DNA of 64,000 bases, from contig CAYPQZ010000006.1 of the NCBI GenBank assembly GCA_964413015.1, positions 74,415-138,414 of the forward strand. Reading direction: 5' to 3'. Every line of letters begins with the position of its first letter. Within the stretch, counting starts at the first letter, position 1. This stretch comes from an uncultured Candidatus Saccharibacteria bacterium. Lineage in GTDB: Bacteria > Patescibacteriota > Minisyncoccia > Portnoybacterales > UBA2143. Of this stretch, positions 1,611-61,692 are shown in pieces. The notes under the pieces were generated by a model that worked only from the letters and a program-made list of their open reading frames with translations, was not told the origin of the DNA and ran no database searches. Position numbers and translations under genes: made by a program.

Positions 1611-1616
1611 TTGAAA

Positions 1617-1674
1617 AAGGACAGTCCTTAAAATTACGTCCTTTGCAAAGGACGTAATTTTAAGGACTGTCCTT
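1617..1674. repeat. Family-A hairpin repeat (perfect 58-bp palindrome aaggacagtccttaaaattacgtccttt|gcaaaggacgtaattttaaggactgtcctt)
   Basis: Perfect inverted repeat read directly from the sequence. It is related to more than 10 other copies in the window. Confidence 0.9.
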
Positions 1675-1685
1675 TGATTAATTAT

Positions 1686-2768
1686 ATGAAAGATTACTAC
1701 GAAATTTTAGGCGTTTCTCGGAATGCCACCGAGCAGGAAATAAAGAAGAACTATAGAAAATTAGCCCTTAAATATCATCCTGACCGGGCGCCTCAAGACA
1801 AAAAAAAAGAATACGAAGAGAAATTTAAGGAAGTCAGCCAGGCCTATCGGGCGCTTTCTGACAAAGAAAAAAGAGCTCAGTATGACCAGTTTGGCCAGAC
1901 ATTTGAAAATGGCCAAGGGTCTTCTTTCGGACAGCAGGATTTTCGTTCTTTCCATGAGGCCTTTGGCGGACAGGACATTTTTGAAGATTTAGGTTTTGGC
2001 CGGATTTTTGAAGAAATGTTCGGCTTTGGGCGCGGAACTGAAACTGGTTCAAATGTCCACTATGGCCAGGATATATCTTTGGATATAGAAATTGATTTGG
2101 AAGATTCTTTTCACGGCGCGGAACAGAAGATAGAATTACGCAAGCTAATTATCTGTCCGAAGTGCCAAGGCAAAGGCGGGCAGTCATTGAAAAAATGTCC
2201 GGTCTGTCAGGGGAGCGGTTATGAGCAGATAAACAGCCGGAGTTTGTTCGGTCTTTTTATTCAGCAACGGCCTTGCTCTAATTGCCATGGCCGGGGAGAA
2301 GTTCCGGAAAAGACTTGTCCGGAGTGCCGCGGACAGGGAAGAATTAAACAGGCCCAGAAAATAAAAATAACCGTTCCGTCGGGAATTGACGACGGGCAGG
2401 TTTTAAAACTTTCCGGGTATGGGAATGCCGGTCTTTATGGCGGTCCGGCCGGCGATTTATTCGTTAATATCCATTTGCGGCCGCACAAGCATTTCCAACG
2501 GCAAGGTGATAACTTGCTCCTCAATTTAGAAATTAGCTTTGCTCAAGCAGCTTTAGGTGATAAAATAGAAATACCTTTGTTAGACGGAAAAGCTAATTTG
2601 AAGATTCCGGCTGGCATTCAGCCCGGAGAAATGATAAAATTAAAAGATAAAGGAATGCCTAGTTTGTACGGACGGGGACAGGGCGATTTAATTATTAAGA
2701 TTCAGGTCAAGGTTCCTAAAAAATTATCCCGTAAGCAGAAGAAGATTATTGGGGAATTAAATGGATAG
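1686..2768 (+). CDS. dnaJ: Molecular chaperone DnaJ
   Basis: J-domain YYEILGV...YHPD, a Gly/Phe-rich linker, and four CxxCxGxG zinc-finger repeats. The start is set at MKDYYEIL (ATG at 1686); the track ORF begins at a TTG at 1674. Confidence 0.9.
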
Positions 2769-2836
2769 TCGCAAAAGCTTCGAAAATAAATTTTGACAAG
2801 GGCAACCCAATAAGAACAGTCTTTTAATCTATATAA

Positions 2837-3379
2837 ATGGCGATTCGCGATTTTTTAACTAATTTTCATATTGGCGCGGCTTCGGGATGGGATTTGTTTA
2901 TTGTCCTGATTTTTTTGATTGCCGTTTTAGTTTACGGATTTTTTCTGGGACGCAACCGGATGATAATCCTTCTTTTAAGCAGCTATTTTTCTTTGGCGAT
3001 TGTTGAAGTTCTGCCTTGGGAGAGAATCAGTTCTTTATCCTGGTTGGGAGTCGGTTCCGAACCTTCATCTTCTTTGAAAATTCTTATCTTTGCGGGAATT
3101 ATTCTGTTGTTCTACTTTTTAATCCCTCGCTCTATACTCAGCTCAACCCTGAGAATCAGAAACCGAGGAGAGGCCTCCTGGCTGCAATTATTCATCCTAA
3201 GCATTGTTCAGGTCGGTTTGCTGGCAATGGTTATCTTTTCATTTTTGCCGTCCCAACCATTAGGGAATCTTAGCTATTGGATAAAAAAGGCCTTTGTAGA
3301 TCCGGAAGCCCGTTTCGTCTGGATTGCTCTTCCGATTCTGGTCATGGTTTTGATGCGCCGGAGGAAGAAACCGGAATAG
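2837..3379 (+). CDS. Membrane protein, hypothetical (CvpA-like?)
   Basis: 180 aa with four or more TM helices and a basic C-terminus. Confidence 0.4.
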   Translation: MAIRDFLTNFHIGAASGWDLFIVLIFLIAVLVYGFFLGRNRMIILLLSSYFSLAIVEVLPWERISSLSWLGVGSEPSSSLKILIFAGIILLFYFLIPRSILSSTLRIRNRGEASWLQLFILSIVQVGLLAMVIFSFLPSQPLGNLSYWIKKAFVDPEARFVWIALPILVMVLMRRRKKPE

Positions 3380-7045: not shown

Positions 7046-8449
7046 ATGAAAATTAAAGATTTTAAAGACAAAAAAGTGACTATTATTGGCTTAGGACTGC
7101 ATGGCGGGGGAGTTGGCGCGGCTAAATTTTTCAGCCGGGCCAAAGCCAAAGTCCTGGTCACTGATTTAAAGACTAAAGATGAACTGGCTGAATCAATAGA
7201 AAAATTAAAGAAAGAACCGATTAAATATGTTTTGGGCCAGCACCGGTCAGAGGACTTTATTAATGCTGATTTAATTATCCAGAATCCGGGAGTTAGAGAT
7301 AAATCTAAATATTTGGAAATAGCCAGAGAAAACAATGTTCCGATTGAAACGGATATCGGTATATTTTTCGAGCTTTGTACGGTTCCGATTATCGGCGTTA
7401 CCGGAAGCCGAGGCAAGTCCACAACGAGCGTTTTAATAGCCAGGTTTCTTAAAAGGAGATATTCAGAAGTAATTTTGGCCGGAAATATACGCAGTTCGGC
7501 GCTGTTAAAGTTAAAGAAAATAGATAAAGACACTAAAGTCGTCTTGGAGCTTTCAAGTTGGCAGTTAGCCGGCTTAAAATCGCACAAAAAAAGTCCGGCT
7601 TACGCCGTGTTGACCAATCTCATGCCTGACCATTTAGACAGGTATAAGGATATGGAACAATATATCAGGGACAAAAGAAAAATTTTCCGGTGGCAGAAAT
7701 CAGATAATTATTTAGTCCTTAACTATGACGATAAACAAGTAAGAGAATTTAGCCAGGAAGCAAAGTCGAAAGTGTTCTATTTCAGCCAGAATAATCAATC
7801 GGCATCTGACTTCCAAGGAAGTTTTGTTAAAGACGATAAAATATATTTCAATTCTGAAGAAATCTGTTCTTTGGAGGAAATCCGGTTAAAAGGCAGGCAT
7901 AATCTTAGTAATGTTCTGGCGGCCGTAACGATGGCCAAAATTCATCGGGTGCCCAACAAATCTATCCAAAAAGTTTTAAGCAAATTTGAAGGCCTGGAAG
8001 GCCGTTTGGAGCTAATAGGCGTTGTTAGAGGAATAGAGTATATCAACGATACTACCTCGACTATTCCCGAGGCTTGTCTGGCCGCTTTAAGGACTTTCCC
8101 AAAGCGCAATATTATCCTGATTGCCGGCGGCAATGATAAAAATCTGGAATTTAAAGAGCTTGCCAGAGGGATTGTAAAAAGAGTTAAGGCCGTTATTTTG
8201 CTCAAAGGGAACGCTACTGACAAAATTAAGAAAGCGCTTGATGAAGAATTAAATTTAAATAACCAGTATCTAGAAATAATCGGACCCTTAGACAGCATGG
8301 AAGAAGCCGTTGCCAAAGCAACTGAACAAGCTGAAGAATTTGAAAGAAGCATTGTTTTACTTTCTCCGGCCAGCTCCAGTTTTAGCATGTTCAGGCATGA
8401 ATTTGAAAGAGGCGAGGCCTTTAATAAAGCAGTGTCTTCGTTAAAATGA
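7046..8449 (+). CDS. murD: UDP-N-acetylmuramoylalanine--D-glutamate ligase
   Basis: Mur ligase P-loop GVTGSRGKSTT and an N-terminal Rossmann GLGLHGGG. It lies between mraY and ftsW. Confidence 0.9.
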   Translation: MKIKDFKDKKVTIIGLGLHGGGVGAAKFFSRAKAKVLVTDLKTKDELAESIEKLKKEPIKYVLGQHRSEDFINADLIIQNPGVRDKSKYLEIARENNVPIETDIGIFFELCTVPIIGVTGSRGKSTTSVLIARFLKRRYSEVILAGNIRSSALLKLKKIDKDTKVVLELSSWQLAGLKSHKKSPAYAVLTNLMPDHLDRYKDMEQYIRDKRKIFRWQKSDNYLVLNYDDKQVREFSQEAKSKVFYFSQNNQSASDFQGSFVKDDKIYFNSEEICSLEEIRLKGRHNLSNVLAAVTMAKIHRVPNKSIQKVLSKFEGLEGRLELIGVVRGIEYINDTTSTIPEACLAALRTFPKRNIILIAGGNDKNLEFKELARGIVKRVKAVILLKGNATDKIKKALDEELNLNNQYLEIIGPLDSMEEAVAKATEQAEEFERSIVLLSPASSSFSMFRHEFERGEAFNKAVSSLK

Positions 8450-9558
8450 AGAACCATCAACCTGATTACATTTTTATCCTTGTTGTTTTTGCTTTAATTG
8501 CTTTCGGGTTGATTATACTTTTCAGCGCCTCGTCAGTTATTTCACATGAAAAGCTTAGCCAAAGCAACTATTTCCTAAAGCATCAGCTGTTTTACAGCCT
8601 GCCTTTGGCGTTGATTTTTTTTATTATCTGCCAGAGAATTAATTACCGATACTGGAAAAAAGTGGCTTTTCCTTTAATGGTCGTCTCGCTGATTTTACTG
8701 GCTTTGGTTTTTGTTCCTGGGATAGGCAGTGAAAGCGGAGCCAAAAGATGGATTTACTTAGGATTTTCAGTTCAGCCCTTTGAAGTTGTCAAACTAACTT
8801 TTATTATTTACTTAGCCGCTTTACTAAGCCGACTCCGGAAGGTTTCTGAAGCGAGTAAAGAAGATAACGCCCAAGCCATTAAAGAAAGTTTAGCCCCTTT
8901 TTTATTGGTTGCCGGGATTATCGGTCTGCTGGTTTCTTTCCAGCCTAATATGAGCGCTTTGGTAATGACCTCTTTAATTGCCGGCCTGCTCTACTTTCTT
9001 GCCGGCGCCAGGTTATCTTACTTAGCAGCTCTTTCAGGCTTGGCTTTAGCCGGATTTTTTGTTTTAATTAAAGTAGCTCCTTACAGGATGAAAAGATTGA
9101 CGGTTTTTCTCCATCCGGAATGGGATCCTCAAGGCATTGGTTATCAGATTAATCAGGCGCTTTTGGCTATTGGTTCAGGAGGACTCTTTGGATTGGGCTT
9201 TGGGCATAGTATCCAAAAATGGAAGTATCTTCCCGAAGTTATCGGCGATTCCATTTTTGCCATTGCCGCAGAAGAATTCGGTTTAATTGGCGCCGGCCTG
9301 ATAGTTTCATTTTTTGTTATTTTAGCTTGGCGAGGATTCAAAGTTGCTAAAAATTCTTCTGATAGATTTGGCTATCTTTTAGCCGGGGGAATTACCGGTT
9401 GGCTTTTTTTCCAGGCCATTATTAATATATCGGCTATTTCCGGATTAATCCCTTTAACTGGAATTCCTTTGCCTTTTATAAGTTATGGTGGAACTGCCCT
9501 GGTAATTTCGTCGGTCGGGGCAGGGATTTTGGTTAACATATCAAAATACACTAAGTAA
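8446..9558 (+). CDS. ftsW: SEDS-family peptidoglycan glycosyltransferase FtsW/RodA
   Basis: 10-TM SEDS architecture. It sits in the dcw cluster between murD and murG. Confidence 0.85.
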   Translation: MKNHQPDYIFILVVFALIAFGLIILFSASSVISHEKLSQSNYFLKHQLFYSLPLALIFFIICQRINYRYWKKVAFPLMVVSLILLALVFVPGIGSESGAKRWIYLGFSVQPFEVVKLTFIIYLAALLSRLRKVSEASKEDNAQAIKESLAPFLLVAGIIGLLVSFQPNMSALVMTSLIAGLLYFLAGARLSYLAALSGLALAGFFVLIKVAPYRMKRLTVFLHPEWDPQGIGYQINQALLAIGSGGLFGLGFGHSIQKWKYLPEVIGDSIFAIAAEEFGLIGAGLIVSFFVILAWRGFKVAKNSSDRFGYLLAGGITGWLFFQAIINISAISGLIPLTGIPLPFISYGGTALVISSVGAGILVNISKYTK

Positions 9559-10771: not shown

Positions 10772-12147
10772 ATAATAATAAACCAATCAGAGTTAGAATT
10801 GCGCCCAGTCCGACTGGCTTATTTCATATTGGCACGGCCCGGACTACGCTCTTCAATTATTTATTTGCTAAAAAGAACAATGGCAAATTTATTTTACGCA
10901 TTGAAGACACTGACAAAGAAAGATCAGAGGGAAAATACAAAAAAGACATTCTTGATAATCTAAAATGGCTGGGTCTGGAATGGGATGAAGAATACTGCCA
11001 GAGTGAGCGAATAGCTATTTATGAAAAATATCTTAAAAAACTTTTAGATTCCGGACAAGCATTTTATTGTTACCATACTAAAGAAGAACTGGATAAGGAA
11101 AAAAATAAGCAGATGGCTAATAAGGAAGCCCCGCGTCATATTTGCGATGGCCGGGGAGCTTCTTCAAAAGGGATTATTAGATTTAGATGCCCGGATAAGA
11201 AAATTACTTTTAATGATTTAATCAAAGGAGAATTAACGTTTGACGGAAATTTGCTAGGGGATATAAGCATTGCCAAAGATGAAAAAACGCCGCTTTATAA
11301 TTTTGCCGCTTCGGTGGATGACGCTGAAATGAAAATGAGCCATATCATTAGGGGCGAAGACCATATTTCCAATACGCCTAAACAGATTTTTATTCTTGAG
11401 GCGTTGGGATTAGATTGTCCTGAGTATGCTCATCTCCCTTTAACTCTGGGTCCCGATAAGACGAAATTAAGCAAGCGGCATGGAGTTGTTTCGGTAACCC
11501 GATATAGAAAAGAAGGATATTTGCCGGAGGCGCTGGTTAATTTTATAGCTTTTCTTGGTTGGCATCCGGGCAATGAAAAAGAGATTTTTTCTTTGAAAGA
11601 ATTAGAGCGGGAGTTCTCTATAGAAAGAATAAACAAGTCCAATGCAATCTTTAACATCAATAAGCTTGACTGGTATAATGGCCAATATATTCGGAAAATG
11701 GATTTGGATAAATTGACCGAATTATGCTTGCCTTATCTGTCCCAAGAAACTAATTTTGATTATGCTAAAAAAGTTGTTGCTTTAGAACAAGAAAGGTTAA
11801 AAAAGCTTTCTGAAATAGGGGAGTTAACTAAGTTTTTCTTTTTGGACAAGCTGGACTATCCAAAAGAGCTGCTAATTTGGAAGAAAATGACTTTAAAAGA
11901 GGTTAAAAACAACCTTGACATATTAGGTAAAGCATTGTCTAAAATAGATAAATTTGACCAAAATTCGTTTCAAGGTATTCTGATGCCTCTGGCTGAAAAA
12001 CATGGCTCTGGAGAGCTTCTGTGGCCTCTGAGAGTGGCTTTAACAGGCCAAAAGGCCTCTCCTGGTCCCTTTGAAATAATGGAAGTTTTGGGTAAAAAAA
12101 AGGTTCTTAAAAGAATAGAAGAAGCCATGGAATTAATTGAAATTTAA
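10768..12147 (+). CDS. gltX: Glutamyl-tRNA synthetase
   Basis: HIGH motif (PSPTGLFHIGTART) and KMSKS-like KLSKR. It shares an ATGA overlap with murG. Confidence 0.9.
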   Translation: MNNNKPIRVRIAPSPTGLFHIGTARTTLFNYLFAKKNNGKFILRIEDTDKERSEGKYKKDILDNLKWLGLEWDEEYCQSERIAIYEKYLKKLLDSGQAFYCYHTKEELDKEKNKQMANKEAPRHICDGRGASSKGIIRFRCPDKKITFNDLIKGELTFDGNLLGDISIAKDEKTPLYNFAASVDDAEMKMSHIIRGEDHISNTPKQIFILEALGLDCPEYAHLPLTLGPDKTKLSKRHGVVSVTRYRKEGYLPEALVNFIAFLGWHPGNEKEIFSLKELEREFSIERINKSNAIFNINKLDWYNGQYIRKMDLDKLTELCLPYLSQETNFDYAKKVVALEQERLKKLSEIGELTKFFFLDKLDYPKELLIWKKMTLKEVKNNLDILGKALSKIDKFDQNSFQGILMPLAEKHGSGELLWPLRVALTGQKASPGPFEIMEVLGKKKVLKRIEEAMELIEI

Positions 12148-12276
12148 GGATTTGATAAGAGGAAACAGATAAGGACTGTTTTTAAGGAAATTTAAGGGTT
12201 GTCATTGAGGATCACGTCCCTTTACAGAAGGCAAACTTGACAAGGACTGTCTTTATCATTGGCAATCCTTAACTTT
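12141..12276. repeat. Family-A modular repeat (partial copy)
   Basis: aatttaagga...gggttgtcattgaggatcacgtccc...aacttgacaaggactgtctttatca. The left end overlaps the gltX stop codon. Confidence 0.8.
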
Positions 12277-12278
12277 TT

Positions 12279-21502: not shown

Positions 21503-21506
21503 ATTT

Positions 21507-21742
21507 TTATTTAAGGATTGTCATTGAGGATTACGTCTCTTCGCCTTTGGCGAAGGGCGTGTCCGCCTGCCCGCCTCTGGAGGGAAAGGACGACTCCTTA
21601 AATTTTGACAAGGATAAACTGATAAGAACAGTCTTTAAAATGACGCCCTTGTGCTCAAGGGACATCATTTTAAGGACTGGCCTTATCATCATCTGTTCTT
21701 ATCGTATGACAATTCTTAAATTTTTAAAAGTCGACTGTTCTT
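21507..21742. repeat. Family-A modular repeat, full-length copy (L-module ... R hairpin)
   Basis: tttaaggattgtcattgaggattacgtc ... ccgcctctggagggaaaggacgactccttaaattttgacaagg ... ataagaacagtctttaaaatgacgcccttgtgctcaagggacatcattttaaggactggcctt. Confidence 0.85.
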
Positions 21743-22785
21743 TGCCCTTGCTTAAACCACCTTGACATTTCCTGAACACTTGCTTTCTTGTTAGCCATAA
21801 TTATTTTTCTCTTTTGCCAGGCCTTAGGCGTTTGTTTAAATAAATCTTTTATGGCTTTCCAAGTGAATCTCTCAAAAAGCAGAACGTAAAACCAAGAAGC
21901 TGTCTCTTTAATTAAAAACCAGGGCAAATGCTTTATTAAAATCCAAGCCTGCTCATTTTTAATCTGCATTAGACGTTGATTTTTAAATGCCAAATATTTG
22001 GCAAATTTGCCTATTTTTATCCTTTCTCGGATTATGGCTAAGTAATTTATAGAAGCGTTTTCTCCGGAACTTCTGTCATGCCAGGCAATTGATTTTGGCT
22101 GATAAATAATTTTCCATCCGTAAAGACGCATTCGCCAAGACAAATCAACATCTTCCTTGTACATAAAAAAATCTTCATCAAAATATTCTCCATTTATTTT
22201 AACATTCTCCAGAGCGGTTTTTCGGTAAAGCGGCGCTGCTCCGTCTGCCCCAAAGACTTTTGTTTTTTCTTCAAATTGACCTTCATCAATTTCTCCCTGC
22301 CCTCGGTTGATAATCCGCCTGTTTTTTAAAATGGCTAATCCGGCGCTATCAATAATATAAAAAATTTCCTGGTTTTTAACGTATCCCAAAGACGAATTAC
22401 CTAAGTTCCAACGAAGCAATTTTCCTTGAACCGCGCCTATCCGATTATCCTTTTCAAGAGCTTCTACCGCTTTTTTAACGAAATGCCTGTCTAAAAAAAC
22501 ATCTTGAGTGAGGCATAAAACATATTTCCCTCGACTAATTCTTATTCCCTGATTCTGGCCTCCGGCATATCCTAAATTCTTCTTGTTAAAAACTATTTTC
22601 AAGTCCGGTCGGTTTTCCTTGGCTAATTTCTCCAGATAGTTTTTTGATTCTCCAATAGAATTATTGTCAATAATAAGGATTTCTAAATCAGGGTATTCTT
22701 GGCTGAAAACCGAATTCAAACATTTATCAAGATATTTTTCTCCATTATGAGTCAGGAGATTTATTGAAACTAATGGGCGAAGCAT
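21724..22785 (-). CDS. Glycosyltransferase family 2
   Basis: INLLTHNGEKYLDKCLNSV...IIDNNS is a GT2 signature. The stop codon lies inside the repeat end. Confidence 0.7.
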   Translation of the reverse strand: MLRPLVSINLLTHNGEKYLDKCLNSVFSQEYPDLEILIIDNNSIGESKNYLEKLAKENRPDLKIVFNKKNLGYAGGQNQGIRISRGKYVLCLTQDVFLDRHFVKKAVEALEKDNRIGAVQGKLLRWNLGNSSLGYVKNQEIFYIIDSAGLAILKNRRIINRGQGEIDEGQFEEKTKVFGADGAAPLYRKTALENVKINGEYFDEDFFMYKEDVDLSWRMRLYGWKIIYQPKSIAWHDRSSGENASINYLAIIRERIKIGKFAKYLAFKNQRLMQIKNEQAWILIKHLPWFLIKETASWFYVLLFERFTWKAIKDLFKQTPKAWQKRKIIMANKKASVQEMSRWFKQGQRTVDF

Positions 22786-27658: not shown

Positions 27659-28591
27659 CTATACCTCCATTCCCCGGAGGGCCTTAACTCGTTCCTCAAC
27701 CGGCGGATGGGTGCTGAATAATTTAGAAACTTTTTTGCCTTTAAACGGACTGTTAATATACAGGTGCGCGGTGGCTTTGTTGGCGATTTTCAAAGGAGTT
27801 TGGTCGGCTGATATTTTTTCCAAAGCCCGGGCTAATCCTTCCGGATAGCGGGTCAACAAGGCGCCGCTGGCGTCAGCCAGAAATTCCCGCTTGCGGGAAA
27901 TGGATAATTGAATTAAAGAAGCGATGAAAGGAGACAAAATTGCCAGAGCAAAGCTGATTAAAATCATAATGCCGGCAAATTGCCCGCCTCCTCGATTATC
28001 GCTTTTGCTTCTCCCAAAAACGCTCCATCGCACAAACCAGTCAGAAAGCAGAACCACCATACCTACTAAAACTACTACCACGGTTTGCAAAAGAATATCT
28101 CGGTTTCCAATATGGCTTAATTCATGAGCTAGGACGCCTTCTAATTCCGAACGGTCCAGTTTTCCCAAAAGTCCGCGAGTTACCGCAATAACCGCGTGTT
28201 CCGGATTCCGGCCGGTGGCAAAAGCATTTGGCGCCATTTCGTCAATAATGTATATTTTGGGCAAAGGCAGGCCGGCAGTAATGCATAAATTTTCTACCAA
28301 ACGGTACAGCTCAGGATTATCTTTTTTTTCAACCTTCTTGGCCTTGCTCATTTTAAGAACAATTTTGTCTGAATACCAATAAGAAATAAAACTCATTAAA
28401 GAGCTGAAAGCCACGGCTATTATTAGAATAAGCGGACTTTCAAATTGATAAGAAAAAACCCAGCCCAGTCCGATAATGAAAATAAGAAAAATAGAAATTA
28501 ACAGCCACGTCTTACGGATATTTGAATCTTTGTGAGTGTATAAAGTAGGCATGCGAGTAAAGGAAGCCCTCAAAAATTTAAGGATTGTCAT
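27659..28591 (-). CDS. htpX: Zinc metalloprotease HtpX (M48)
   Basis: HELSHIGNRD HExxH motif and TM helices. The first 7 codons (MTILKFL) are encoded by the family-A repeat end. An alternative start is M14. Confidence 0.85.
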   Translation of the reverse strand: MTILKFLRASFTRMPTLYTHKDSNIRKTWLLISIFLIFIIGLGWVFSYQFESPLILIIAVAFSSLMSFISYWYSDKIVLKMSKAKKVEKKDNPELYRLVENLCITAGLPLPKIYIIDEMAPNAFATGRNPEHAVIAVTRGLLGKLDRSELEGVLAHELSHIGNRDILLQTVVVVLVGMVVLLSDWFVRWSVFGRSKSDNRGGGQFAGIMILISFALAILSPFIASLIQLSISRKREFLADASGALLTRYPEGLARALEKISADQTPLKIANKATAHLYINSPFKGKKVSKLFSTHPPVEERVKALRGMEV

Positions 28592-28800
28592 TGAGAGCAG
28601 TGAACTTCCGCCGAAGGCGGAAAGTTACGCTCGCCTGTCCGCCTCTGGAGGGAAAGGACGATTCTTAAATTTTGACAAGCTTCCATGATAAGAACAGTCT
28701 TTAAAATGACGCTCTTGTTCAAGGGACATCATTTTAAGAATTGTCCTTATCATCAGCGTATTCCAAGGGACATTATTTTGAGAACTATCCTTATCGTCAA
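28573..28800. repeat. Family-A modular repeat, full-length copy
   Basis: aatttaaggattgtcattgag...ccgcctctggagggaaaggacgattcttaaattttgacaag...ataagaacagtctttaaaatgacgctcttgttcaagggacatcattttaagaattgtcctt. Confidence 0.85.
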
Positions 28801-29408: not shown

Positions 29409-29518
29409 ATTTTTTAGTTTTTAAATTAAAAACCCAAATAAATTTATTTCAAGTATTATAAAGTTGATTTTCCTTTATTATATCATTCCCGAAACGATTT
29501 TGCAAATACGAAAACAAA

Positions 29519-29580
29519 AAAGGACAGTCCTTAAAATTGTACTCCTTGGAATAAGGATGTAATTTTAAAGACTGTCCTTT
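29519..29580. repeat. Family-A hairpin repeat (imperfect variant)
   Basis: aaggacagtccttaaaattgtactccttggaataaggatgtaattttaaagactgtcctt. Confidence 0.8.
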
Positions 29581-29600
29581 AATTATTTAATTTATTCCAA

Positions 29601-31698: not shown

Positions 31699-31873
31699 TC
31701 AACCCAGTAGAAGAATTTTGAAACAAATTTTAACAAAGTTAAAATTTAAATTAAAAATATTCAAAATTTCTCTACTGGGTCAACCCAGAAGAAGAATTTT
31801 GAAATAAATTTTAACAAAGTTAAAATTTAAATTAAAAATATTCAAAATTTCTCTACTGGGTCAACCCAGAATC
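31699..31873. repeat. Family-B element, tandem 81-bp direct repeat x2.15 (cccagtag variant); each unit is a ~20-bp inverted-repeat hairpin
   Basis: Units 31699..31779 and 31780..31860 plus a partial third, of the form tcaacccagtagaagaattttgaaa...ttcaaaatttctctactggg. Confidence 0.85.
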
Positions 31874-32803: not shown

Positions 32804-32839
32804 ATTATAAAAATTTAAGAATTGTTATTAAAGCCATTA

Positions 32840-32900
32840 AAGGACAGTCCTTAAAATGATGTTCCTTAAGCACAAAGACGTCATTTTAAAGACTGTTCTT
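32840..32900. repeat. Family-A hairpin repeat
   Basis: aaaggacagtccttaaaatgatgttccttaagcacaaagacgtcattttaaagactgttctt. Confidence 0.8.
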
Positions 32901-32980
32901 CAATCAATTATACTCCATTCCCTCCAAATAAAAAAGGACGCTGGTCCTTTTGATTCAGAACTAACGCCCTATTACTTTTT

Positions 32981-33504: not shown

Positions 33505-33605
33505 AATACGGTTCTTAAATTTTGATAAGGATAAGCAGATAAGGACAGTCTTTAAAATGATATCCCTTGAGCACAAGGGCGTCATTTTAAAGACTGTCCT
33601 TTAAC
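33505..33605. repeat. Family-A repeat (R-hairpin with partial spacer)
   Basis: cttaaattttgataagg...ataaggacagtctttaaaatgatatcccttgagcacaagggcgtcattttaaagactgtcctt. Confidence 0.85.
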
Positions 33606-33884
33606 CATTGCCTCAAAAACTTTATTTCTCTGTTTGAATCCTTTTACTAACTTAATATTTCCAACAGGGATTTTGAAATATTCAGCCAAAACCTTTGCAA
33701 CCGCCCGGTTGGCCTGTCCTTGGATCGGCCTTTCCTTGACCCAAACCTCAAAACTGTTTTCGCCTTTTTTTATTATTTGCTCCTGACCTGCTTGAGGGAA
33801 AACTTTTACTTTTATCAGCATAGTGTTTTCGTGCCTTAAAATTAGACGGCGTTCGGTAACTAGGCCGTCCCTTGCGTCCGCCAA
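33582..33884 (-). CDS. DUF167/YggU family protein
   Basis: The KVKV.P.A....I...G...EVWV...P..G.AN.A........F family pattern is present. The last 8 codons and the stop are encoded inside the family-A hairpin. Confidence 0.55.
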   Translation of the reverse strand: MADARDGLVTERRLILRHENTMLIKVKVFPQAGQEQIIKKGENSFEVWVKERPIQGQANRAVAKVLAEYFKIPVGNIKLVKGFKQRNKVFEAMVKGQSLK

Positions 33885-35279: not shown

Positions 35280-35385
35280 AATGGTTAATTAAGTAATCAT
35301 CCTTAAACCGATATAGAACAGTCCTTAAATTTCCTTAAGGACTATTCTTATTTGTTTATGGCAATCCTTAAATTTTTCAAAGATT

Positions 35386-39209: not shown

Positions 39210-39318
39210 TTGAAGAACGGCCTTCAAAAATTTAAGGACTGTCCTTTAACGGCTTTAATAGCAATCCTTAAATTTTTAATGCTTGACTGGGTTTTAGTTA
39301 TGTGATAACCTTTAAGCA

Positions 39319-42728: not shown

Positions 42729-42856
42729 CCCCGTAGAGAAATTTTGAAACATTCGCCTAGGCGAATAATAAACGGGGTAAAAAATAAGTACACGAATAAA
42801 AAGAGTTCCGAATAATTAAAAATTAGTGAATTTAAATTCAAAATTCTTCTACGGGG
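42729..42856. repeat. Family-B element (TIR ccccgtagagaaattttgaa ... ttcaaaattcttctacgggg)
   Basis: About 128 bp. The right TIR overlaps the first 3 nt of tRNA-Leu. gggcgag is found on both flanks. Confidence 0.8.
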
Positions 42857-42936
42857 CGAGTGGTGAAATGGCAAACACGCTAGCTTCAGGAGCTAGTGGA
42901 GGCAACTCCTTGCGGGTTCAAATCCCGCCTCGCCCA
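42854..42936 (+). tRNA. tRNA-Leu (anticodon CAG), long variable arm
   Basis: Acceptor GGGCGAG/CTCGCCC, anticodon arm CTAGC-TTCAGGA-GCTAG, variable arm TGGAGGCAACTCCTT, T-arm GCGGG-TTCAAAT-CCCGC. Confidence 0.85.
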
Positions 42937-45387: not shown

Positions 45388-45462
45388 AATCTCAGTTCTT
45401 TATTTTAATTAATCTAAAAATCATAAAAGTCCCGGACGAACGGGGCTTTTATGATTAAAAAA

Positions 45463-45580
45463 AAGACAGTCCTTAAAATGATGTCCCTTGAGCACAAAGG
45501 CGTCATTTTAAAGACTGTCCTTATCAGTTTCCCCTTGTCAAAATTTAAATCCTTAAATTTTTAAACTGTCCTTTAACTAA
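45463..45580. repeat. Family-A repeat (R-hairpin plus spacer and short end module)
   Basis: gacagtccttaaaatgatgtcccttgagcacaaaggcgtcattttaaagactgtcctt...ccccttgtcaaaatttaaatccttaaatttttaaactgtccttt. Confidence 0.85.
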
Positions 45581-47608: not shown

Positions 47609-47659
47609 ATTGACTATTCTAACTAAAAAACCACCTCGGGTCAAGGATTCAGCATAATT

Positions 47660-47826
47660 AAAGGACAGTCCTTAAAATGATGTCCCTTGAGCACAAGGGC
47701 GTCATTTTAAAGACTGTCCTTATCTGCTCCCCTTTGTCAAAATTTAAGGAGTCGTCCTTTCAAACACGCCCTTCGCAATTCTGCAAAGGGACGTGACTCT
47801 CAATGACAATCCTTAAATTTTTTAAT
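47660..47826. repeat. Family-A modular repeat, full copy in inverted orientation (R hairpin ... L-module)
   Basis: aaggacagtccttaaaatgatgtcccttgagcacaagggcgtcattttaaagactgtcctt...tcaaaatttaaggagtcgtcctttc...gacgtgactctcaatgacaatccttaaatttt. Confidence 0.85.
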
Positions 47827-47831
47827 GAACC

Positions 47832-48020
47832 TTACTCTTCCTTCTCAATCGCCTGAACTGGACAGATGTCTATAGCTTCTTGGACGCATTGGTCGTCTGC
47901 ATCTTCTTTCCCCTCTTTAATATGCGCTTTATTTTCGTTATCCATTTCAAAAACATCCGGGCAAACAGCTGTACAGCTGCCACAACCAAGACATTTTTCT
48001 TTGTCTATTTTTATACTCAT
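47832..48020 (-). CDS. 4Fe-4S ferredoxin (single-cluster type)
   Basis: CLGCGSCTAVCP...C pattern in a 62-aa protein. Confidence 0.7.
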   Translation of the reverse strand: MSIKIDKEKCLGCGSCTAVCPDVFEMDNENKAHIKEGKEDADDQCVQEAIDICPVQAIEKEE

Positions 48021-48022
48021 AC

Positions 48023-48158
48023 ACCGTAGAAGAATTTTGAATTTTAATCAATAACATTGATTAATAATCTAAGATTCTTCCTTATTTAATTATTCCTATA
48101 TACCCCGTTTTATTAAATTAAATATTTAATTTAATTATTTCAAAATTTCTCTACGGGG
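48023..48158. repeat. Family-B element (TIR caccgtagaagaattttgaa ... ttcaaaatttctctacgggg) with TCATA direct repeats on both flanks
   Basis: It fills the entire fdx-fba intergenic region. The left TCATA (48017..48021) carries the fdx start codon and the right TCATA (48159..48163) carries the fba stop codon. Confidence 0.85.
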
Positions 48159-49025
48159 TCATAATCTGTTATTGCTTTTAAATAATTTAATTTTTTCTTC
48201 AACGACCTTTTGGACCGTTTCGACTACCGACGGCATTATTTTATAAGGAGTAGTCTGTTTGGGATTCTCCTTTAGAAATTTCCTGAGCGCCTTGGCATAA
48301 GCAAGACGCAATTCCGTATTTACATTAATTTTAACGATTCCCGATTCAACAGCTTTCTGAATATCGTCTTCCGGAGTACCAGAGCCTCCATGAAGAACTA
48401 AAAAGACTTCTTTGCCTAAAACGCTATTGATTTCTTTTAGACGGTCTATGAAAAGATGAGGGTTGCCGGAAATATCATTCTTCTTAATAATTCCATGGAT
48501 ATTGCCAATAGCTATTGCTAAGCTTGTCACTCCTGTATTTTTAATAAATTCCTTGGCCTGCTTCGGCTTTGTCAAATCCTCTTCTTTGATTTCCATTGAT
48601 TCTTGCAAAGACGAACTGCCCCTTAAATAACCAATTTCACCTTCAACGTTTTGAATCCCTTTCCCCTTAGCTAAATTAACCACTTTCTTGGTCATCTTTA
48701 TGTTTTCCTCAAAGCTTAATTCTGAGCCGTCAAACTGGACAGAATCGTATCCGCTTTCAACCGCTTTTTGAATAATCTCCCATGACTTGCCGTGATCCAG
48801 ATGTAAAAAGATTGGCAAGCCGGTTTCTTTTTTGTAAACATTAATTAAAGCTCTAATCTGTCTTACTCCAATAAAATTACTTTCCCCTTGGGAAGTAGCG
48901 ACAATAACCGGACTTTCTAATTTTTGAGCAGCCTGAACAATCGCTTTCACTTGCTCTAAATTAGAGACATTAAAAGCCCCGATGGCATAATGATTAGTTT
49001 GCGCTTTTTTGAATACGTCTAACAT
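48159..49025 (-). CDS. fba: Fructose-bisphosphate aldolase class II
   Basis: Class II FBA pattern with HLDHG and VLHGGSG. Confidence 0.9.
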   Translation of the reverse strand: MLDVFKKAQTNHYAIGAFNVSNLEQVKAIVQAAQKLESPVIVATSQGESNFIGVRQIRALINVYKKETGLPIFLHLDHGKSWEIIQKAVESGYDSVQFDGSELSFEENIKMTKKVVNLAKGKGIQNVEGEIGYLRGSSSLQESMEIKEEDLTKPKQAKEFIKNTGVTSLAIAIGNIHGIIKKNDISGNPHLFIDRLKEINSVLGKEVFLVLHGGSGTPEDDIQKAVESGIVKINVNTELRLAYAKALRKFLKENPKQTTPYKIMPSVVETVQKVVEEKIKLFKSNNRL

Positions 49026-49033
49026 ATTTTTGA

Positions 49034-50299
49034 CTATTTGGGGACTGTTCCCAAAGTAACATAACCTTTATCTAAATTTTCCATCAGAGTTTTATCCAAC
49101 ATTTTTTCTCCCGCATATTCAATAAAAATTTTATTCCAAAGCGCTTCCGGCTGATGGTAAAGATACCTGTAATTAAAGTCCTTTTGATGAAGAAGTGAAA
49201 TCCCGTTATCAAATAAATCGAAACTGATTAAAGACTCTTGCCCGGAAGCATCAGAAAAATATTCGGCCAGAACATCTGAACCACGCCAAAAATCAAATCC
49301 CGAGTCAGGAAACTTTTGACTGAATTTATCAATACAGACAGCCGCTCTAGTATAATGCCAGGCCTCCGGACTGATATGGGGTTCGGCCAGCCTGGGATCG
49401 TCAGGATTCTTTTTGTCTAAATAGGCCGGCATCATCCGCCAACTCATTTTATTGCTATTAGGCAAGGGCATGTCGCTAACTTGGACTTTCAAAGCTTCGG
49501 TCATTTTATGAACAAAATCCCTTTCCTGGCTGTATTTTTCAAAAAGACGAGCGTGCCAGTCAACTTCGTAAGTATAGTGAAGTGTCATAAAAAAGTAATA
49601 TAGAGATTCATTAGGACGATCTTTAATCACCGGAATAATAAAAACAACGCCGACTTCCTTCAAATGGCTCATGTGATGGAATTTCTTTTCTAAAAATTCT
49701 TGCCCTTTGCCTGACCATCTTTTTGGCAAAACCATTATTCTAATCGGCCTTTTTTCAAAATCATCCTTTGTTAAATAAGTGTAGGCCTTAAAAAAAACCT
49801 TGTTCAGCCAATCGCCGTCTTCAACAAAACGCAAGGCGCAAAAAAGTTCAAAAACATCTTCTTTGTCTAGCATTTCATCAATCTTGTCTTCGTATCCCAG
49901 AATTCCCATAATTTTTTTAGGCGGGTTCAATCTGAACAATTCTTTAAGTTTCTCTTCTTTAATAAAAAAATCCGATAGATTACCAGTTAAATCTTTTATG
50001 GCGCTGATAAAATCCCGACAATCATCCGGATCGGAAAGATTAAACTGATTAAAATGGTTAAAAAGAAACTGGTTATTTTGCTTAGCTTTCTCAATTAAAG
50101 ATTGATAAATATCTTCAGCTTTTGAATTCCTGTCTAATCCTAAAATGGCCAATTTCTGGTCAATTTTAGAGTCATTCTCCTGAACAATTTTTTCAATTAT
50201 ATCCCTTTTGCCGAAAATTTCAGACATTTTATTTTCCAGATTCAAAATAACTTCTTCAGGAGCCCCCAATATTTTAGCTAATTTAGTAACTGGATTCAT
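49034..50299 (-). CDS. Hypothetical protein (421 aa) embedded in the glycolysis/PPP operon
   Basis: No motif I can assign. It is conserved-looking and sits between the pfkB kinase and fba. The start is taken at MNPVTK, directly after the pfkB stop. Confidence 0.4.
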   Translation of the reverse strand: MNPVTKLAKILGAPEEVILNLENKMSEIFGKRDIIEKIVQENDSKIDQKLAILGLDRNSKAEDIYQSLIEKAKQNNQFLFNHFNQFNLSDPDDCRDFISAIKDLTGNLSDFFIKEEKLKELFRLNPPKKIMGILGYEDKIDEMLDKEDVFELFCALRFVEDGDWLNKVFFKAYTYLTKDDFEKRPIRIMVLPKRWSGKGQEFLEKKFHHMSHLKEVGVVFIIPVIKDRPNESLYYFFMTLHYTYEVDWHARLFEKYSQERDFVHKMTEALKVQVSDMPLPNSNKMSWRMMPAYLDKKNPDDPRLAEPHISPEAWHYTRAAVCIDKFSQKFPDSGFDFWRGSDVLAEYFSDASGQESLISFDLFDNGISLLHQKDFNYRYLYHQPEALWNKIFIEYAGEKMLDKTLMENLDKGYVTLGTVPK

Positions 50300-51342: not shown

Positions 51343-52311
51343 TCATTTCCTCTTGATGACTTTTAGAACTGCTTCTTTAATATCTTTTGCCACTAAACCG
51401 AATTCTTTCATTAGCTCATCCGGCTCGCCGGATTCGCCAAAGCGGTTCTGAATGCCAATCATTTCAATAGGCACCGGTTCATTTTTAGCTAAAACTTCCG
51501 CTACTGCGCTGCCTAAGCCACCCATTACCTGATGGTCTTCGCCAGTGACAATTGCTCCGGTCTGTTCAGCCGCTTTAATAATTTCCTCTTCGTCAATCGG
51601 CTTAATCGTATGATTGTTAATCACCCGCACATCAATTCCTTGTTTAGACAAACTCTCAGCGGCTAACAAAGCTTCATAGACAATCGGTCCACAGGCAATT
51701 ATGCTGACATCTCGCCCTTTTCGTAAAACTTCTGCCTGCCCGATTTTAAAAGGTGTCTTAGAAGTAGTAAAAATAGGCGTGGCTTCCCTAGCAAATCTTA
51801 AATAAACCGGTCCCTCTATTTTGCCTGCGGCCACAGTTGCTTTCTGCGTTTCAACAGCATCACAGGGAGCCAATACAGTCATATTCGGCAAACAGCGAGT
51901 AATCGCTATATCCTCTAATCCCTGATGAGTGGCTCCATCTGCGCCAACTGAAACCCCGGCATGGGCGCCGGTCATTTTCACATTGACGTTGTTATAGGCA
52001 ACAGATATTCTGATTTGGTCCCAGTTGCGTCCGGGGCAAAAAACGGAATAAGTTGAAACAAAAGGAATTTTGCCGGTGAGCGCTAATCCGGCCGCTACGC
52101 CAATCATATTTTGCTCGGCAATCCCACATTGAACAAATCTTTCCGGGAATTCATCACGGAACCAGTTACAGCGGGTTGAACCAGTTAAATCAGCTCCTAA
52201 AACAATTATGTTTTTATTCTCTTTAGCCAGTTCAACCAACCCTAAACCATAGCCGTCACGAGTCGGCTTTTTTTCTAACTTGCTTTTATTGTATAAATTT
52301 TTTGCTAGCAT
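51343..52311 (-). CDS. tktB: Transketolase, C-terminal subunit (pyrimidine-binding plus C-terminal domains)
   Basis: Pyrimidine-binding and C-terminal domain patterns. Split-gene arrangement. Confidence 0.85.
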   Translation of the reverse strand: MLAKNLYNKSKLEKKPTRDGYGLGLVELAKENKNIIVLGADLTGSTRCNWFRDEFPERFVQCGIAEQNMIGVAAGLALTGKIPFVSTYSVFCPGRNWDQIRISVAYNNVNVKMTGAHAGVSVGADGATHQGLEDIAITRCLPNMTVLAPCDAVETQKATVAAGKIEGPVYLRFAREATPIFTTSKTPFKIGQAEVLRKGRDVSIIACGPIVYEALLAAESLSKQGIDVRVINNHTIKPIDEEEIIKAAEQTGAIVTGEDHQVMGGLGSAVAEVLAKNEPVPIEMIGIQNRFGESGEPDELMKEFGLVAKDIKEAVLKVIKRK

Positions 52312-52335
52312 GTTTTAAAATGATATCTTTTAACG

Positions 52336-52505
52336 ATAAGGACATTCCTTAAAATGATGTCCCTTGAGCACAAGGGCGTCATTTTAAAGACTGTTCTTAT
52401 CAGTTTGTCTTATCTGTTTCCCCTTGTCAAAATTTAAGGAGTCGTCCTTTCCCTCCGGAGGCAGACATATGACAATCCTTAAATTTTTCAAAACTGTCCT
52501 TTAAC
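52336..52505. repeat. Family-A modular repeat, full copy (inverted orientation) between the two tkt halves
   Basis: aaggacattccttaaaatgatgtcccttgagcacaagggcgtcattttaaagactgttctt...ccccttgtcaaaatttaaggagtcgtcctttccctccggagg...atgacaatccttaaatttttcaaaactgtccttt. Confidence 0.85.
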
Positions 52506-52518
52506 TCAAAAAGCAAAA

Positions 52519-53367
52519 TCACTCGCTTTCGCTTTCAATCCGTCCACCCAATGTTCTTAATTCACTTAAGGCCTCCTGGGCCTGCTTTTTGTCAGGCACC
52601 TTGCCATGCCAGGAATACTGCCATTTAATGAAATCAACTCCCTTGCCGGGTATAGTATGGGCAATAATTAAACTTGGTTTTTCAAAAATCGCTTTTGACT
52701 TATGACAGGCATCAATAATCTCTTCTATATTGTGTCCGTCCACATCCATAACGTGCCAGCCAAAAGCTTCGTATTTTTCCTTTAATGGCTCCAAAGGCAT
52801 AACATCTTCGGTATAACCGTCAATCTGAATATTGTTTCGGTCCATAATCTGAGTGATGTTAAAAAGTTTGTATTTACCGGCAAACATAGCTGCCTCCCAC
52901 ATTGAACCCTCGTCATGCTCTCCATCTGAAGTCAAGGCCCAAACCCAATTATCTTTCTTATCAAGTTTAGCAAAGTTATAGGCCATACCGCAGGCAATTT
53001 GCAATCCCTGGGCCAAGGAGCCTCCGGAAGTTTCTATACCGGGCACGCCCTGCCGACAAGGATGGCCCTGCAGAATGCTGCCCAGTTTGCGCAGGGTTTT
53101 AAGCTCTTTTTTATCAAAATAACCAGCATGTGCCAGAACAGCATACCAAACTGGACAAATATGGGCATTAGAAATCACCACGTAATCACGCTCCGACCAA
53201 TTCGGTTTTTTAGAATTGTATTTAATTACTCCTCCGAAATACAAGGCAGTCAGAACATCAGCCATGCCTAAAGAGCCGGCTGAATGACCCGACTTGGCTT
53301 CAGTCAGCATATCAATCAAATCTTTTCTAATATCGTTGGCTTTTTTTTCTAATTCTTTAGTATCCAT
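52519..53367 (-). CDS. tktA: Transketolase, N-terminal subunit (TPP-binding)
   Basis: GH.G..LG and the TPP-binding GDG...EG motifs. Confidence 0.85.
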   Translation of the reverse strand: MDTKELEKKANDIRKDLIDMLTEAKSGHSAGSLGMADVLTALYFGGVIKYNSKKPNWSERDYVVISNAHICPVWYAVLAHAGYFDKKELKTLRKLGSILQGHPCRQGVPGIETSGGSLAQGLQIACGMAYNFAKLDKKDNWVWALTSDGEHDEGSMWEAAMFAGKYKLFNITQIMDRNNIQIDGYTEDVMPLEPLKEKYEAFGWHVMDVDGHNIEEIIDACHKSKAIFEKPSLIIAHTIPGKGVDFIKWQYSWHGKVPDKKQAQEALSELRTLGGRIESESE

Positions 53368-54484: not shown

Positions 54485-54485
54485 A

Positions 54486-54621
54486 CCCCGTAGAAGAATT
54501 TTGAATTCTAATCAATTTTATCGATTAGCAATCTAAAAAATTTTCACTTAATTATTTATAGAACGCCCCGTTTTATTAAATTAAATCAAAGATTTAATTG
54601 TTTCAAAATTTCTCTACGGGG
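54486..54621. repeat. Family-B element (TIR ccccgtagaagaattttgaa ... ttcaaaatttctctacgggg) with TCATA direct repeats on both flanks
   Basis: It fills the rpiB-gap intergenic region. The left TCATA (54481..54485) contains the rpiB start and the right TCATA (54622..54626) contains the gap stop. Confidence 0.85.
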
Positions 54622-59343: not shown

Positions 59344-59478
59344 GCCCCGTAGAAGAACTTTGACATTCACCTTAAATATCAAAATCTTAATTAATGTTTT
59401 TAATTTATTCTGTGTTTATACACCCCGTATGTCTATTTATTCGCCTTGGGCGAATGAGTCAAAGTTTCTCTACGGGGC
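59344..59478. repeat. Family-B element (TIR gccccgtagaagaactttga ... tcaaagtttctctacggggc)
   Basis: Lies between the dsbA-like start and the mtaD-like stop. The internal palindrome ttcgccttgggcgaa is shared with the 42729 copy. Confidence 0.8.
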
Positions 59479-61409: not shown

Positions 61410-61439
61410 AAAATTAAGATGATTAAAGGATAGCCAATT

Positions 61440-61665
61440 AAAGGACAGTCCTTAAAATGATGTCCCTTGGGATAAGGACTATGATAAGGACAGTCCTTAA
61501 AATGATGTCCCTTGAGCACAAGGGCGTCATTTTAAAGACTGTTCTTATCAGTTTCCCTTTATCAAAATTTAAGGAGTCGTCCTTTCCCTCCAGAGACGGG
61601 CAGGCGGACACGCCCTTTGCCTTCTGTAAAGGGCGTGATCCTCAATGACAATCCTTAAATTTTTC
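61440..61665. repeat. Family-A modular repeat, full copy with duplicated half-hairpin (inverted orientation)
   Basis: aaggacagtccttaaaatgatgtcccttgg... then a full hairpin, then ...tcaaaatttaaggagtcgtcctttccctccagagacggg...gggcgtgatcctcaatgacaatccttaaattttt. Confidence 0.85.
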
Positions 61666-61692
61666 GTCTTCAAGCAAAAGGCCTATACATTT

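Follow-up and report, generated by a model that had tools for sequence, protein, structure and literature searches.

Hairpin-Forming Repeats at the Gene Junctions of a Compact Patescibacteria Genome and the Short C-Terminal Tails Encoded at Their Ends

Genes and Repeats of the Window

The window examined here is a 64,000-nucleotide stretch of contig CAYPQZ010000006.1 (assembly GCA_964413015.1, forward-strand positions 74,415 to 138,414) from an uncultured bacterium that is labelled Candidatus Saccharibacteria and placed by GTDB in the Patescibacteriota (Portnoybacterales). The focus was on the repeats that lie between its genes and reach the ends of coding sequences, among them those of htpX, a DUF167 gene, gltX, a GT2 gene and a nucleotidyltransferase-like (NTase-like) gene. 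The genes are ordinary Parcubacteria housekeeping genes, and they are tightly packed: the window is about 90% coding, 29 of its 72 gene gaps are no longer than 10 nt, and many neighbours overlap by ATGA. Of the gaps longer than 40 nt, roughly half (17/35) contain repeat sequence. Two repeat families were recognised, family A and family 2. Relative to syntenic relatives the copies are insertions, the C-termini of several proteins are changed, the fourteenth codon (M14) of the longest htpX open reading frame (ORF) is the conserved start, and family 2 has duplicated its target.

Family A was defined by repeat finding, alignment of copies and self-BLAST of the window. The 18-mer ATGACAATCCTTAAATTT, which has 12 matches in the window at two or fewer mismatches (0.02 expected), is one end of a mosaic, hairpin-rich repeat of about 230 bp with copies at about 15 intergenic sites. 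Three modules make up these copies, which reach ~230 bp in length: the H hairpin (AAGGACAGTCCTTAAAATGATGTCCCTTGAGCACAAGGGCGTCATTTTAAAGACTGTCCTT), the M module, whose stem is GC-rich, and the L-end (CTCAATGACAATCCTTAAATTTTT). All of these modules are built on one palindromic core, TTAAAGGACAGTCCTTAAA (consensus TTAAAGGAC-N-GTCCTTAAA, or AAGGAC-N-GTCCTT), arranged both directly and inverted. The H module is a pair of inverted core copies with a 25-pair stem, and there are clusters of alternating orientation. Family A shows the short imperfect palindrome, inverted doublets and mosaic clusters by which repetitive extragenic palindromes (REPs), bacterial interspersed mosaic elements (BIMEs) and REPINs are recognised. 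Folding energies of the H hairpins lie between -33 and -48 kcal/mol (z -8 to -12). The 25-pair stem is common to 15 hairpins from several genomes, and 3 of its pairs show compensatory changes. Three copies (12141-12278, 21503-21728 and 39226-39278) are enclosed by inverted L-ends; in others, an L-end at one side is paired with an H core at the opposite side. Relative to transcription, both orientations are found.

The ends of family A are rich in stop codons. Translation entering the H-end (read from the consensus TTAAAGGACAGTCCTTAAAATGA) meets one within 1-7 codons in all three frames; at the L-end two of the frames are closed, within 3 or 7 codons. The flanks of the family-A core (consensus TTAAAGGAC) have no GTAG or GTGG head tetranucleotide. 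In the window, only three tRNAs reach the gathering threshold of Rfam 15, with no match to a repeat, and at 61380-61720 there were only sub-threshold miRNA-like hairpin matches of 17-27 bits, against thresholds of 55-440. Arrays of the TIGR or CRISPR-like kind were rejected because the copies are dispersed, not tandem.

Gene 3′ Ends Within Repeats

The protein tails were judged against syntenic relatives without the repeats. The comparator contigs are syntenic with the window and encode HtpX or transketolase proteins 88-94% identical to those studied here; L007-L013 are without the family-A copies, and more empty sites are found in L190 and L191.

At the DUF167 gene, an earlier note on this DNA, made from the letters alone, had assigned the last codons and the stop to a hairpin, and this was confirmed. 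The H hairpin at 33538-33604 (-40.7 kcal/mol, z = -9.6) holds the stop codon (33582-33584) and the preceding 6.7 codons, with AAA GGA CAG TCT TTA AAA TGA forming its left arm. The last residue of the Pfam domain is E91 of the ORF, which leaves 9 residues up to the stop. The protein ends in ..KVFEAMVKGQSLK, a tail (…MVKGQSLK) about 7 residues longer than in relatives, which end in ..KIFEVK* (L008, with an ATGA overlap to the next start) and ..KIFEIKV* (L011). Most of 81 DUF167 homologues, each covering 86-99% of the query, are 71-77 aa long (range 71-100); the tail was in none of those read, although tail length is naturally variable in the family. In the nearest relative, L192, the same place in DUF167 is taken by a variant core, AAAGGCACGGCCTTT, a solo palindrome of 21 nt that lies in frame and gives ..FEVRKARPLRK*.

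The GT2 gene presents a similar picture. Its protein ends in ..RWFKQGQRTVDF and is followed by 221 bp of family A, compared with ..KWFN* or ..KWFR* in relatives, 1-4 nt before the LytR ATG. The tail is 8 residues longer (QGQRTVDF) and is encoded by the half-core 21727-21750, and the stop codon, 21724-21726, does fall in a repeat end as had been noticed earlier, namely at the junction of the L-end T-run and this half-core. The same arrangement of L-end, TTTTT and ACTGTYCTTT half-core recurs at 52469-52503 and 45555-45578.

Smaller changes were found at three further genes. The stop of the NTase-like gene (TAG, 31853-31855) also lies in a repeat end, as proposed, but this end belongs to the other family: it is the family-2 inverted repeat CCAGTAGAG, which also supplies the last codon (Q). 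Relatives end this gene with GGC TTG ACA GTT TGA, where TTGACA forms the groES promoter's -35 box; an ancestral-like CTGGGTTGACGGTTTAA and the groES -10 box persist 162 nt downstream in the window, and the protein itself changes only from ..GLTV* to ..GLTQ*. TktC, the C subunit of transketolase, ends in ..IKRK*, with its TGA TAA in ATGATAAAGGACAG, versus ..IKRKG* or ..IKRKN* in relatives, a loss of one residue. A 433-aa protein ends in ..GYVTLGTVPK* through the relic core GGAACAGTCCCCAAATAG, a gain of 5 residues; its counterparts end in ..GYVSL* in L190 and, running into a family-A hairpin, in ..GYVVLSKDSP* in L191.

The gltX stop (TAA, 12145-12147) sits, as stated earlier, within an L-end, AAATTTAAGGAT, and the 131-bp gap to the next gene is all repeat, between inverted L-ends. 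The C-terminus, ..RIEEAMELIEI*, is nevertheless of normal length when set against 18 relatives with a readable C-terminus; the closest relatives found are only 65-71% identical, so C-terminal length was the sole comparison. By that comparison gltX is not measurably remodelled, the element-derived part amounting to at most one residue and the stop. The general claim of the earlier note, that repeats have remodelled gene termini, thus applies to the 3′ ends of the DUF167, GT2, NTase-like, TktC and 433-aa genes, seen against relatives without repeats, and not to gltX or to the 5′ end of htpX.

The Start of htpX

On the minus strand, ATGACAATCCTTAAATTT at 28574-28591 reads ATG ACA ATC CTT AAA TTT TTG in frame with htpX, so that the sequence MTILKFL reported earlier is indeed present and opens the longest ORF (27659-28591, 310 aa). 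As the start of the protein it did not survive comparison. All of the best 120 HtpX homologues align from M14, with a query cover of 86-96% except for P0076, and 117 of them are 295-298 aa long, the exceptions being P0066 (281 aa), P0099 (299 aa) and P0076 (319 aa). The homologues read have the N-terminus M[PA]TLYT[HQY]KD, which in P0076 follows an unrelated 22-aa N-terminal extension, and residues M1-13 occur in no homologue. An identical protein (P0001) in NCBI, JGI and Logan has 297 aa and begins at M14, which the earlier note had offered as a possible true start. In L007/L008 the TAA of LemA and the ATG CCT ACA of htpX adjoin with a 0-nt spacer, and in L011 they are 8 nt apart; in the window this stop and this ATG are separated by 280 bp, nearly all of it family A and absent from those three. 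Because homologues start at M14, and the LemA stop of relatives adjoins that ATG, the extension MTILKFLRASFTR (MTILKFL…) is judged to be a by-product of the in-frame ATG of the L-end, not a real N-terminus, and translation of htpX most likely starts at M14.

It could be argued instead that htpX initiates at the repeat-borne M1, the protein having acquired a 13-residue repeat-derived extension after an insertion broke the translational coupling with LemA. The ATG is in frame with no stop between, M14 is preceded only by a rather remote GAGGG at a distance of 14 nt, and LemA and htpX no longer have their ancestral tight coupling (0-8 nt). However, M1 likewise has no Shine-Dalgarno sequence, the NCBI, JGI and Logan calls all take M14, and in other copies this ATG leads into ORFs of 5-19 aa only; at the exact 18-mer copies at 47803, 52469 and 61645, the last of which had been placed at 61643, these are merely 17, 11 and 19 aa. 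Together with the alignment of the homologues, this makes initiation at M1 very improbable. From base composition, we infer a chance of about 15% per suitably placed copy that an L-end ATG would be in frame and open over 12 codons. The 5′ ends of genes, as far as the sequences indicate, are not remodelled by the repeats, and the L-end ATG only lengthens the longest ORF.

The htpX extension is of a kind with other longest-ORF extensions into repeats. In dnaJ, the longest ORF starts at TTG 1674 in a hairpin, and the likely true start is ATG 1686; the JGI call is the 364-aa TTG version. For a DsbA-like gene, the longest ORF starts at TTG 59382 inside a family-2 element, with the likely true ATG at 59343 (JGI call, 226 aa), and in L194 the Logan call for TktC has 360 aa, of which 37 N-terminal residues are repeat-derived (L194:1998-2108). 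In repeat-rich genomes of the candidate phyla radiation (CPR), longest-ORF or automated calls thus gain false N-terminal extensions (htpX, DsbA-like, dnaJ, TktC), unlike the C-terminal tails of up to 8 residues, which are real DNA features; the distinction is of practical use in CPR genome annotation. The longest RNase J ORF (GTG 42826) overlaps a same-strand tRNA gene (42854-42936), so the true start of RNase J must lie further downstream.

Family 2 and Its Target

Family 2 is a true miniature inverted-repeat transposable element (MITE), with units of 75-137 nt and terminal inverted repeats of about 20 bp (CCCCGTAGAG… elements). The terminal repeats CCCCGTAGAGAAATTTTGAA … TTCAAAATTCTTCTACGGGG are found at 48022-48158, 54486-54621 and 59345-59477, and a variant at 31704-31859. 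For the GAPDH/RpiB junction the exact empty site, AAAAAACTATGATTTATT, is preserved in both L190 and L191, while the window reads …AAAC TATGA (element) TATGA TTTATT…, revealing a 5-bp target-site duplication, TATGA. The duplicated TATGA falls at the ATGA stop/start overlap, leaving both genes intact, and the FBA/ferredoxin junction has the same pattern. The start and stop codons adjoining family-2 ends at these two junctions are, on this reading of the flanks, duplicated host target and not element sequence.

The earlier note had named, as the outcome that would count against it, a coincidence running the other way, with the repeat resembling a gene end that was there before it. Something of the sort holds for family 2, in that the ATGA beside its ends is a host target duplicate; for DUF167 and GT2 it does not, as the same terminal residues were not found in repeat-free relatives. 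The family-2 flanks at the NTase-like gene are GTTGAC, not TATGA. The inverted repeat contains GTAG, yet family 2 makes target duplications.

Other Copies and Terminator-Like Hairpins

The copies of both families are listed in Table 1. JGI calls a 63-aa gene on the opposite strand wholly inside the longest family-A copy (61457-61648; L195:11005-11196), which is probably spurious.

Table 1. Positions of the repeat copies, their parts, and two of the neighbouring coding sequences (CDS).
Feature	Position	Strand	Evidence or remark
htpX CDS, supported start M14 of longest ORF, 297 aa	27659..28552	-	Homologue alignment; identical public protein
Family-A composite, LemA/htpX gap	28553..28799	-	Self-BLAST coverage; alignment with other copies
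Degenerate core-B-like unit in LemA/htpX copy	28553-28571
L-end ATGACAATCCTTAAATTTTT of LemA/htpX copy	28572-28591
M module of LemA/htpX copy			GC-rich stem
H-type half and full hairpins of LemA/htpX copy	28687-28799
DUF167 CDS, 79 aa from MLIKV.., last ~7-8 residues MVKGQSLK repeat-derived	33582..33821	-
Family-A copy, DUF167/next gene: H hairpin (33538-33604) and M fragment	33508..33607	-	Folding; relatives
Family-A composite filling GT2/LytR gap	21503..21750	-	Near-abutting genes in relatives
L-end of GT2/LytR copy	21507-21524
H hairpin of GT2/LytR copy	21621-21687
Inverted L-end of GT2/LytR copy	21706-21723
Half-core of GT2/LytR copy	21727-21750
Family-A composite with inverted L-ends, gltX/next gene	12141..12278	.	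Left end holds gltX TAA; right end adjoins ATG 12279
Small family-A copy (core and L-end), ATGATAAAGGACAG with TktC stops TGA TAA	51295..51349	-
Relic core A GGAACAGTCCCCAAATAG, encodes GTVPK* of 433-aa protein	49034..49051	-
Family-A H hairpin, dnaJ 5′ side	1614..1686	.	-48.3 kcal/mol
Family-A M-type fragment	2787..2827	.
Family-A H hairpin followed by TTTTTTG, downstream of groEL	29512..29589	-	Terminator-like
Family-A copy between -10 box and ATG of NTase-like gene	32808..32912	-
Family-A core cluster and L-end, 109-aa gene/pspC gap	35284..35378	.	1-26 nt there in relatives
Mini family-A element of 53 nt, inverted L-type ends	39226..39278	.
Family-A copy downstream of SLT-domain gene	45450..45578	.	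Hairpin, then T-run
Family-A copy, ferredoxin/L25 gap	47655..47822	+
Family-A copy between two transketolase subunit genes	52335..52506	+	Empty site (5 nt) in L190; copy in opposite orientation in L191
Longest family-A copy, 2-hydroxyacid dehydrogenase/RNase HII gap	61436..61664	+	3 nt or ATGA overlap in relatives
Family-2 MITE, NTase-like gene/groES: two tandem 75-nt units, left inverted repeat CCAGTAGAG	31704..31859	-	Units flanked and separated by GTTGAC
Family-2 MITE in FBA/ferredoxin ATGA overlap	48022..48158	-	TATGA flanks, 48017-48163
Family-2 MITE in GAPDH/RpiB ATGA overlap	54486..54621	-	TATGA duplications, 54481-54485 and 54622-54626
Family-2 MITE upstream of DsbA-like gene	59345..59477	-

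A hairpin followed by a T-run, the form of a terminator, was found at 29512-29589 (…CCTTTTTTG) and 45450-45578 (…GTCTTTTTTTT); most other copies are without a T-run and lie within operons. At the same position downstream of groEL, L008 has a canonical terminator (7290-7330), L011 a different long hairpin (9240-9310), and the window the family-A hairpin with its T-run, which suggests that some T-run hairpins may have been co-opted as terminators. The groEL-downstream hairpins of all three genomes stand just before a conserved TTGCAA…TATAAT promoter of lemA.

A wider version of this idea would make the repeats functional punctuation of the host (terminators, RNA-processing or protein-binding sites) maintained by selection, and not mobile DNA. 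The groEL copy lies exactly where relatives have other terminator hairpins, and the copy at 45450-45578 is similar; palindromic elements of some kind occupy the same junctions in several relatives, and conservation of the hairpin sequence is good in JABMPX01, a more distant Parcubacteria metagenome-assembled genome (MAG). However, close relatives have no copies at the orthologous junctions, their genes there abutting or overlapping, and copies occur in both orientations and inside operons (TktN/TktC, LemA/htpX), where a terminator would be harmful. Most are without the T-run, they match no Rfam family, and a mosaic structure shared by copies as long as 230 bp is characteristic of repeats and not of regulatory sites. 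Punctuation under selection is, on balance, an improbable account of the repeats.

Promoter-like hexamer pairs are contained in, or formed by, repeat copies at 28800..28772 (minus strand), upstream of htpX, and at 32831..32804 (minus strand), upstream of the NTase-like gene. In the latter pair (32804-32831) the TATAAT directly adjoins the ATG, and in relatives TATAAT stands 6 nt before that ATG. An element-borne promoter is not claimed, the region-wide count of matches being 49 against 36.5 ± 6.7, a slight enrichment only.

Distribution and Age of the Copies

A scan of a genome collection with a 16-mer gave 96 loci, mostly chance matches, the pattern being too short for 596 Gb. By BLAST, real H hairpins were found only in Parcubacteria bin.79 (JABMPX01), three Saccharibacteria-labelled MAGs and one Patescibacteria MAG; family-A hairpins occur in the L191 genome, in the more distant JABMPX01 and in a few other Patescibacteria MAGs. 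They are absent from ~40 kb of syntenic DNA of two close relatives and from 80/80 gltX loci. One of the Saccharibacteria-labelled MAGs, L084 (CAZQLH01), has proteins 72-89% identical to those of the window and is a relative of the same organism, so no claim of spread across classes is made. Among the HtpX homologues that carry a taxon name, all are Patescibacteria/Parcubacteria or unclassified 'bacterium', except for an identical one from 'Firmicutes bacterium ML8_F2' (a Mono Lake MAG); the public taxon labels of ML8_F2 and L084 look wrong. Along the contig the repeats are unevenly spread, since the 20 kb flanking the window (L195:1-10000, L196:1-10000) contain no copy of either family.

Junction occupancy differs between relatives. 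Transketolase is encoded by separate N and C subunit genes (51343-53367), and the gap between TktN and TktC measures 5 nt in L190. In the window it is occupied by a family-A copy of 207 bp; L191 also has family A there, in the opposite orientation, and L194 has a core-B composite. Close relatives have a variant palindromic core (AAGGCCGTGCCTT / AAGGCACGGCCTT) at junctions where the window has the GGACAGTCC core, for example at L192:6262-6303, L011:820-890, L194:1969-2110 and 3075-3112, and L190:14248-14473, and the relatives' repeats make tails of their own (RKARPLRK*, SKDSP*). The presence of the variant core GGCCGTGCC at the same junctions in the nearest relatives fits either recurrent targeting or inheritance with replacement.

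The second of these leads to the possibility that the junction elements are ancestral to the clade and were later replaced, homogenised or deleted separately in each lineage, as in the concerted evolution of REPs, in which case the tails would be old. At the DUF167 end, AAAGGACAGTCTTTAAAATGAC of the window aligns position by position with AAAGGCACGGCCTTTACGGAAATGAC of L192, and the TktC 3′ end, the TktN/TktC gap and the 433-aa/FBA junction each have different variants in 3-4 relatives. Clean empty sites exist nonetheless (the ATGA overlap of L008, the 5-nt TktN/TktC gap of L190), and the TktN/TktC copies of the window and L191 lie in opposite orientations. An ancestral origin is the less likely reading. 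A more speculative and rather unlikely proposal is that a Parcubacteria clade hosts a superfamily of junction-seeking palindromic elements which repeatedly occupy the same stop/start junctions. Its members might share common flanks (TTAAAG…CTTAAAAT) and have genome-specific cores, GGACAGTCC here and GGCCGTGCC/GGCACGGCC in the nearest relatives. If true, this would mean an undescribed site-selective mobilisation system, or an operon-punctuation function, co-evolving with the host in streamlined CPR genomes.

Probable Persistence at Gene Junctions Only

The explanation that is probably correct is that two families of non-autonomous, hairpin-forming elements persist only at the gene junctions of a compact Parcubacteria/Patescibacteria genome, and that their stop-rich ends give short tails. 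In a genome nearly without intergenic DNA, only insertions at junctions would survive, and it is because surviving insertions are so confined that element ends would come to touch stop and start codons. An insertion that clips the 3′ end of a gene would let translation enter the element, and as the ends are rich in TAA and TGA, the clipped gene would stop after a few (here 5-8) extra codons; the shortness of the new tails would follow from the stop-rich ends together with junction-only survival. The ends of the DUF167, GT2, 433-aa and TktC proteins, and one residue of the NTase-like protein, may have been acquired in this way. Family 2, by duplicating TATGA at an ATGA overlap, would keep both the upstream stop and the downstream start, and so spare both neighbours. 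Mobility would presumably be provided in trans by a transposase, and the tails are expected to be translated; some of the T-run hairpins may since have been co-opted as terminators.

Several observations weigh against this explanation. Pfam annotation of 50 of the window's ORFs and of 10 kb beyond each end (84 kb in all) found no transposase, and no gene for a RAYT (Y1 HUH transposase) was present in the same 84 kb. For family A, comparison with empty sites at LemA/htpX, GT2/LytR, DUF167/next gene and TktN/TktC (L191) gave no consistent target-site duplication, and possible duplications of TTAAA or TATAAT are inseparable from the element's own palindrome. The local alignment of the GT2 tail with repeat copies scored 23 against a null of 17.6 ± 2.4 (z ~2.2), which is weak alone; the case for GT2 rests on the absence of the tail in relatives and on the recurring arrangement of L-end and half-core. 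Several junctions hold different repeat variants in different relatives, and for this reason some copies could be old and replaced, not newly inserted. What the window nonetheless illustrates is that a supposedly streamlined, ~90% coding genome tolerates active-looking small repeats by confining them to its junctions.

Comparison With Known Systems

A search of the literature on CPR repeats found nothing relevant, but counterparts are known from other bacteria. Copies of QMITE1 and QMITE2 of Coxiella burnetii reach 1-50 bp into functional genes at their 3′ ends; in one case, EnhC, the C-terminal residues and the stop are supplied in this way (PMC5896051). The repeats of the window are like QMITEs in being small, hairpin-forming, non-autonomous repeats at gene 3′ ends. 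They differ in sequence and in host phylum. Inverted and direct repeats are well defined in QMITEs; family A, by comparison, is built as a mosaic of cores and has no consistent target duplication. Terminal inverted repeats and a 5-bp target duplication are features of TIMEs, the Tn3-derived inverted-repeat miniature elements. Family 2, with its ends CCCCGTAGAGAAATTTTGAA, resembles TIMEs in this general description (inverted repeats, 5-bp duplication), which makes a kinship with Tn3-family elements a possible lead.

Fusion of palindromic repeats to ORFs, or their co-transcription with neighbours, is known for Rickettsia palindromic elements (RPEs), Correia/NEMIS, ERIC and YPAL, and some such repeats carry stops in all frames and are hence confined to intergenic DNA (PMC2229807). 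RPEs lie in frame within coding sequences and translation passes through them, whereas the elements of the window end the ORF within a few codons; the only RPE-like, in-frame internal case met here is the 21-nt solo core in DUF167 of L192.

REPINs are inverted REP doublets that form a long hairpin and are associated with RAYT transposases. REP and BIME elements in general are short imperfect palindromes, extragenic and gathered in mosaic clusters (PMC2817692). Family A differs from all of these in having no GTAG-type head, in the lack of a RAYT in the 84 kb examined, and in copies of up to 230 bp with GC-rich internal stems. It is like them in its imperfect palindrome, its inverted doublets, its alternating mosaic clusters and its extragenic position, and also in having a species-specific consensus at similar genomic positions. 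The known view of bacterial MITEs and REPs is unchanged by these families; the observation of gene ends within repeats is correct, and its explanation is ordinary.

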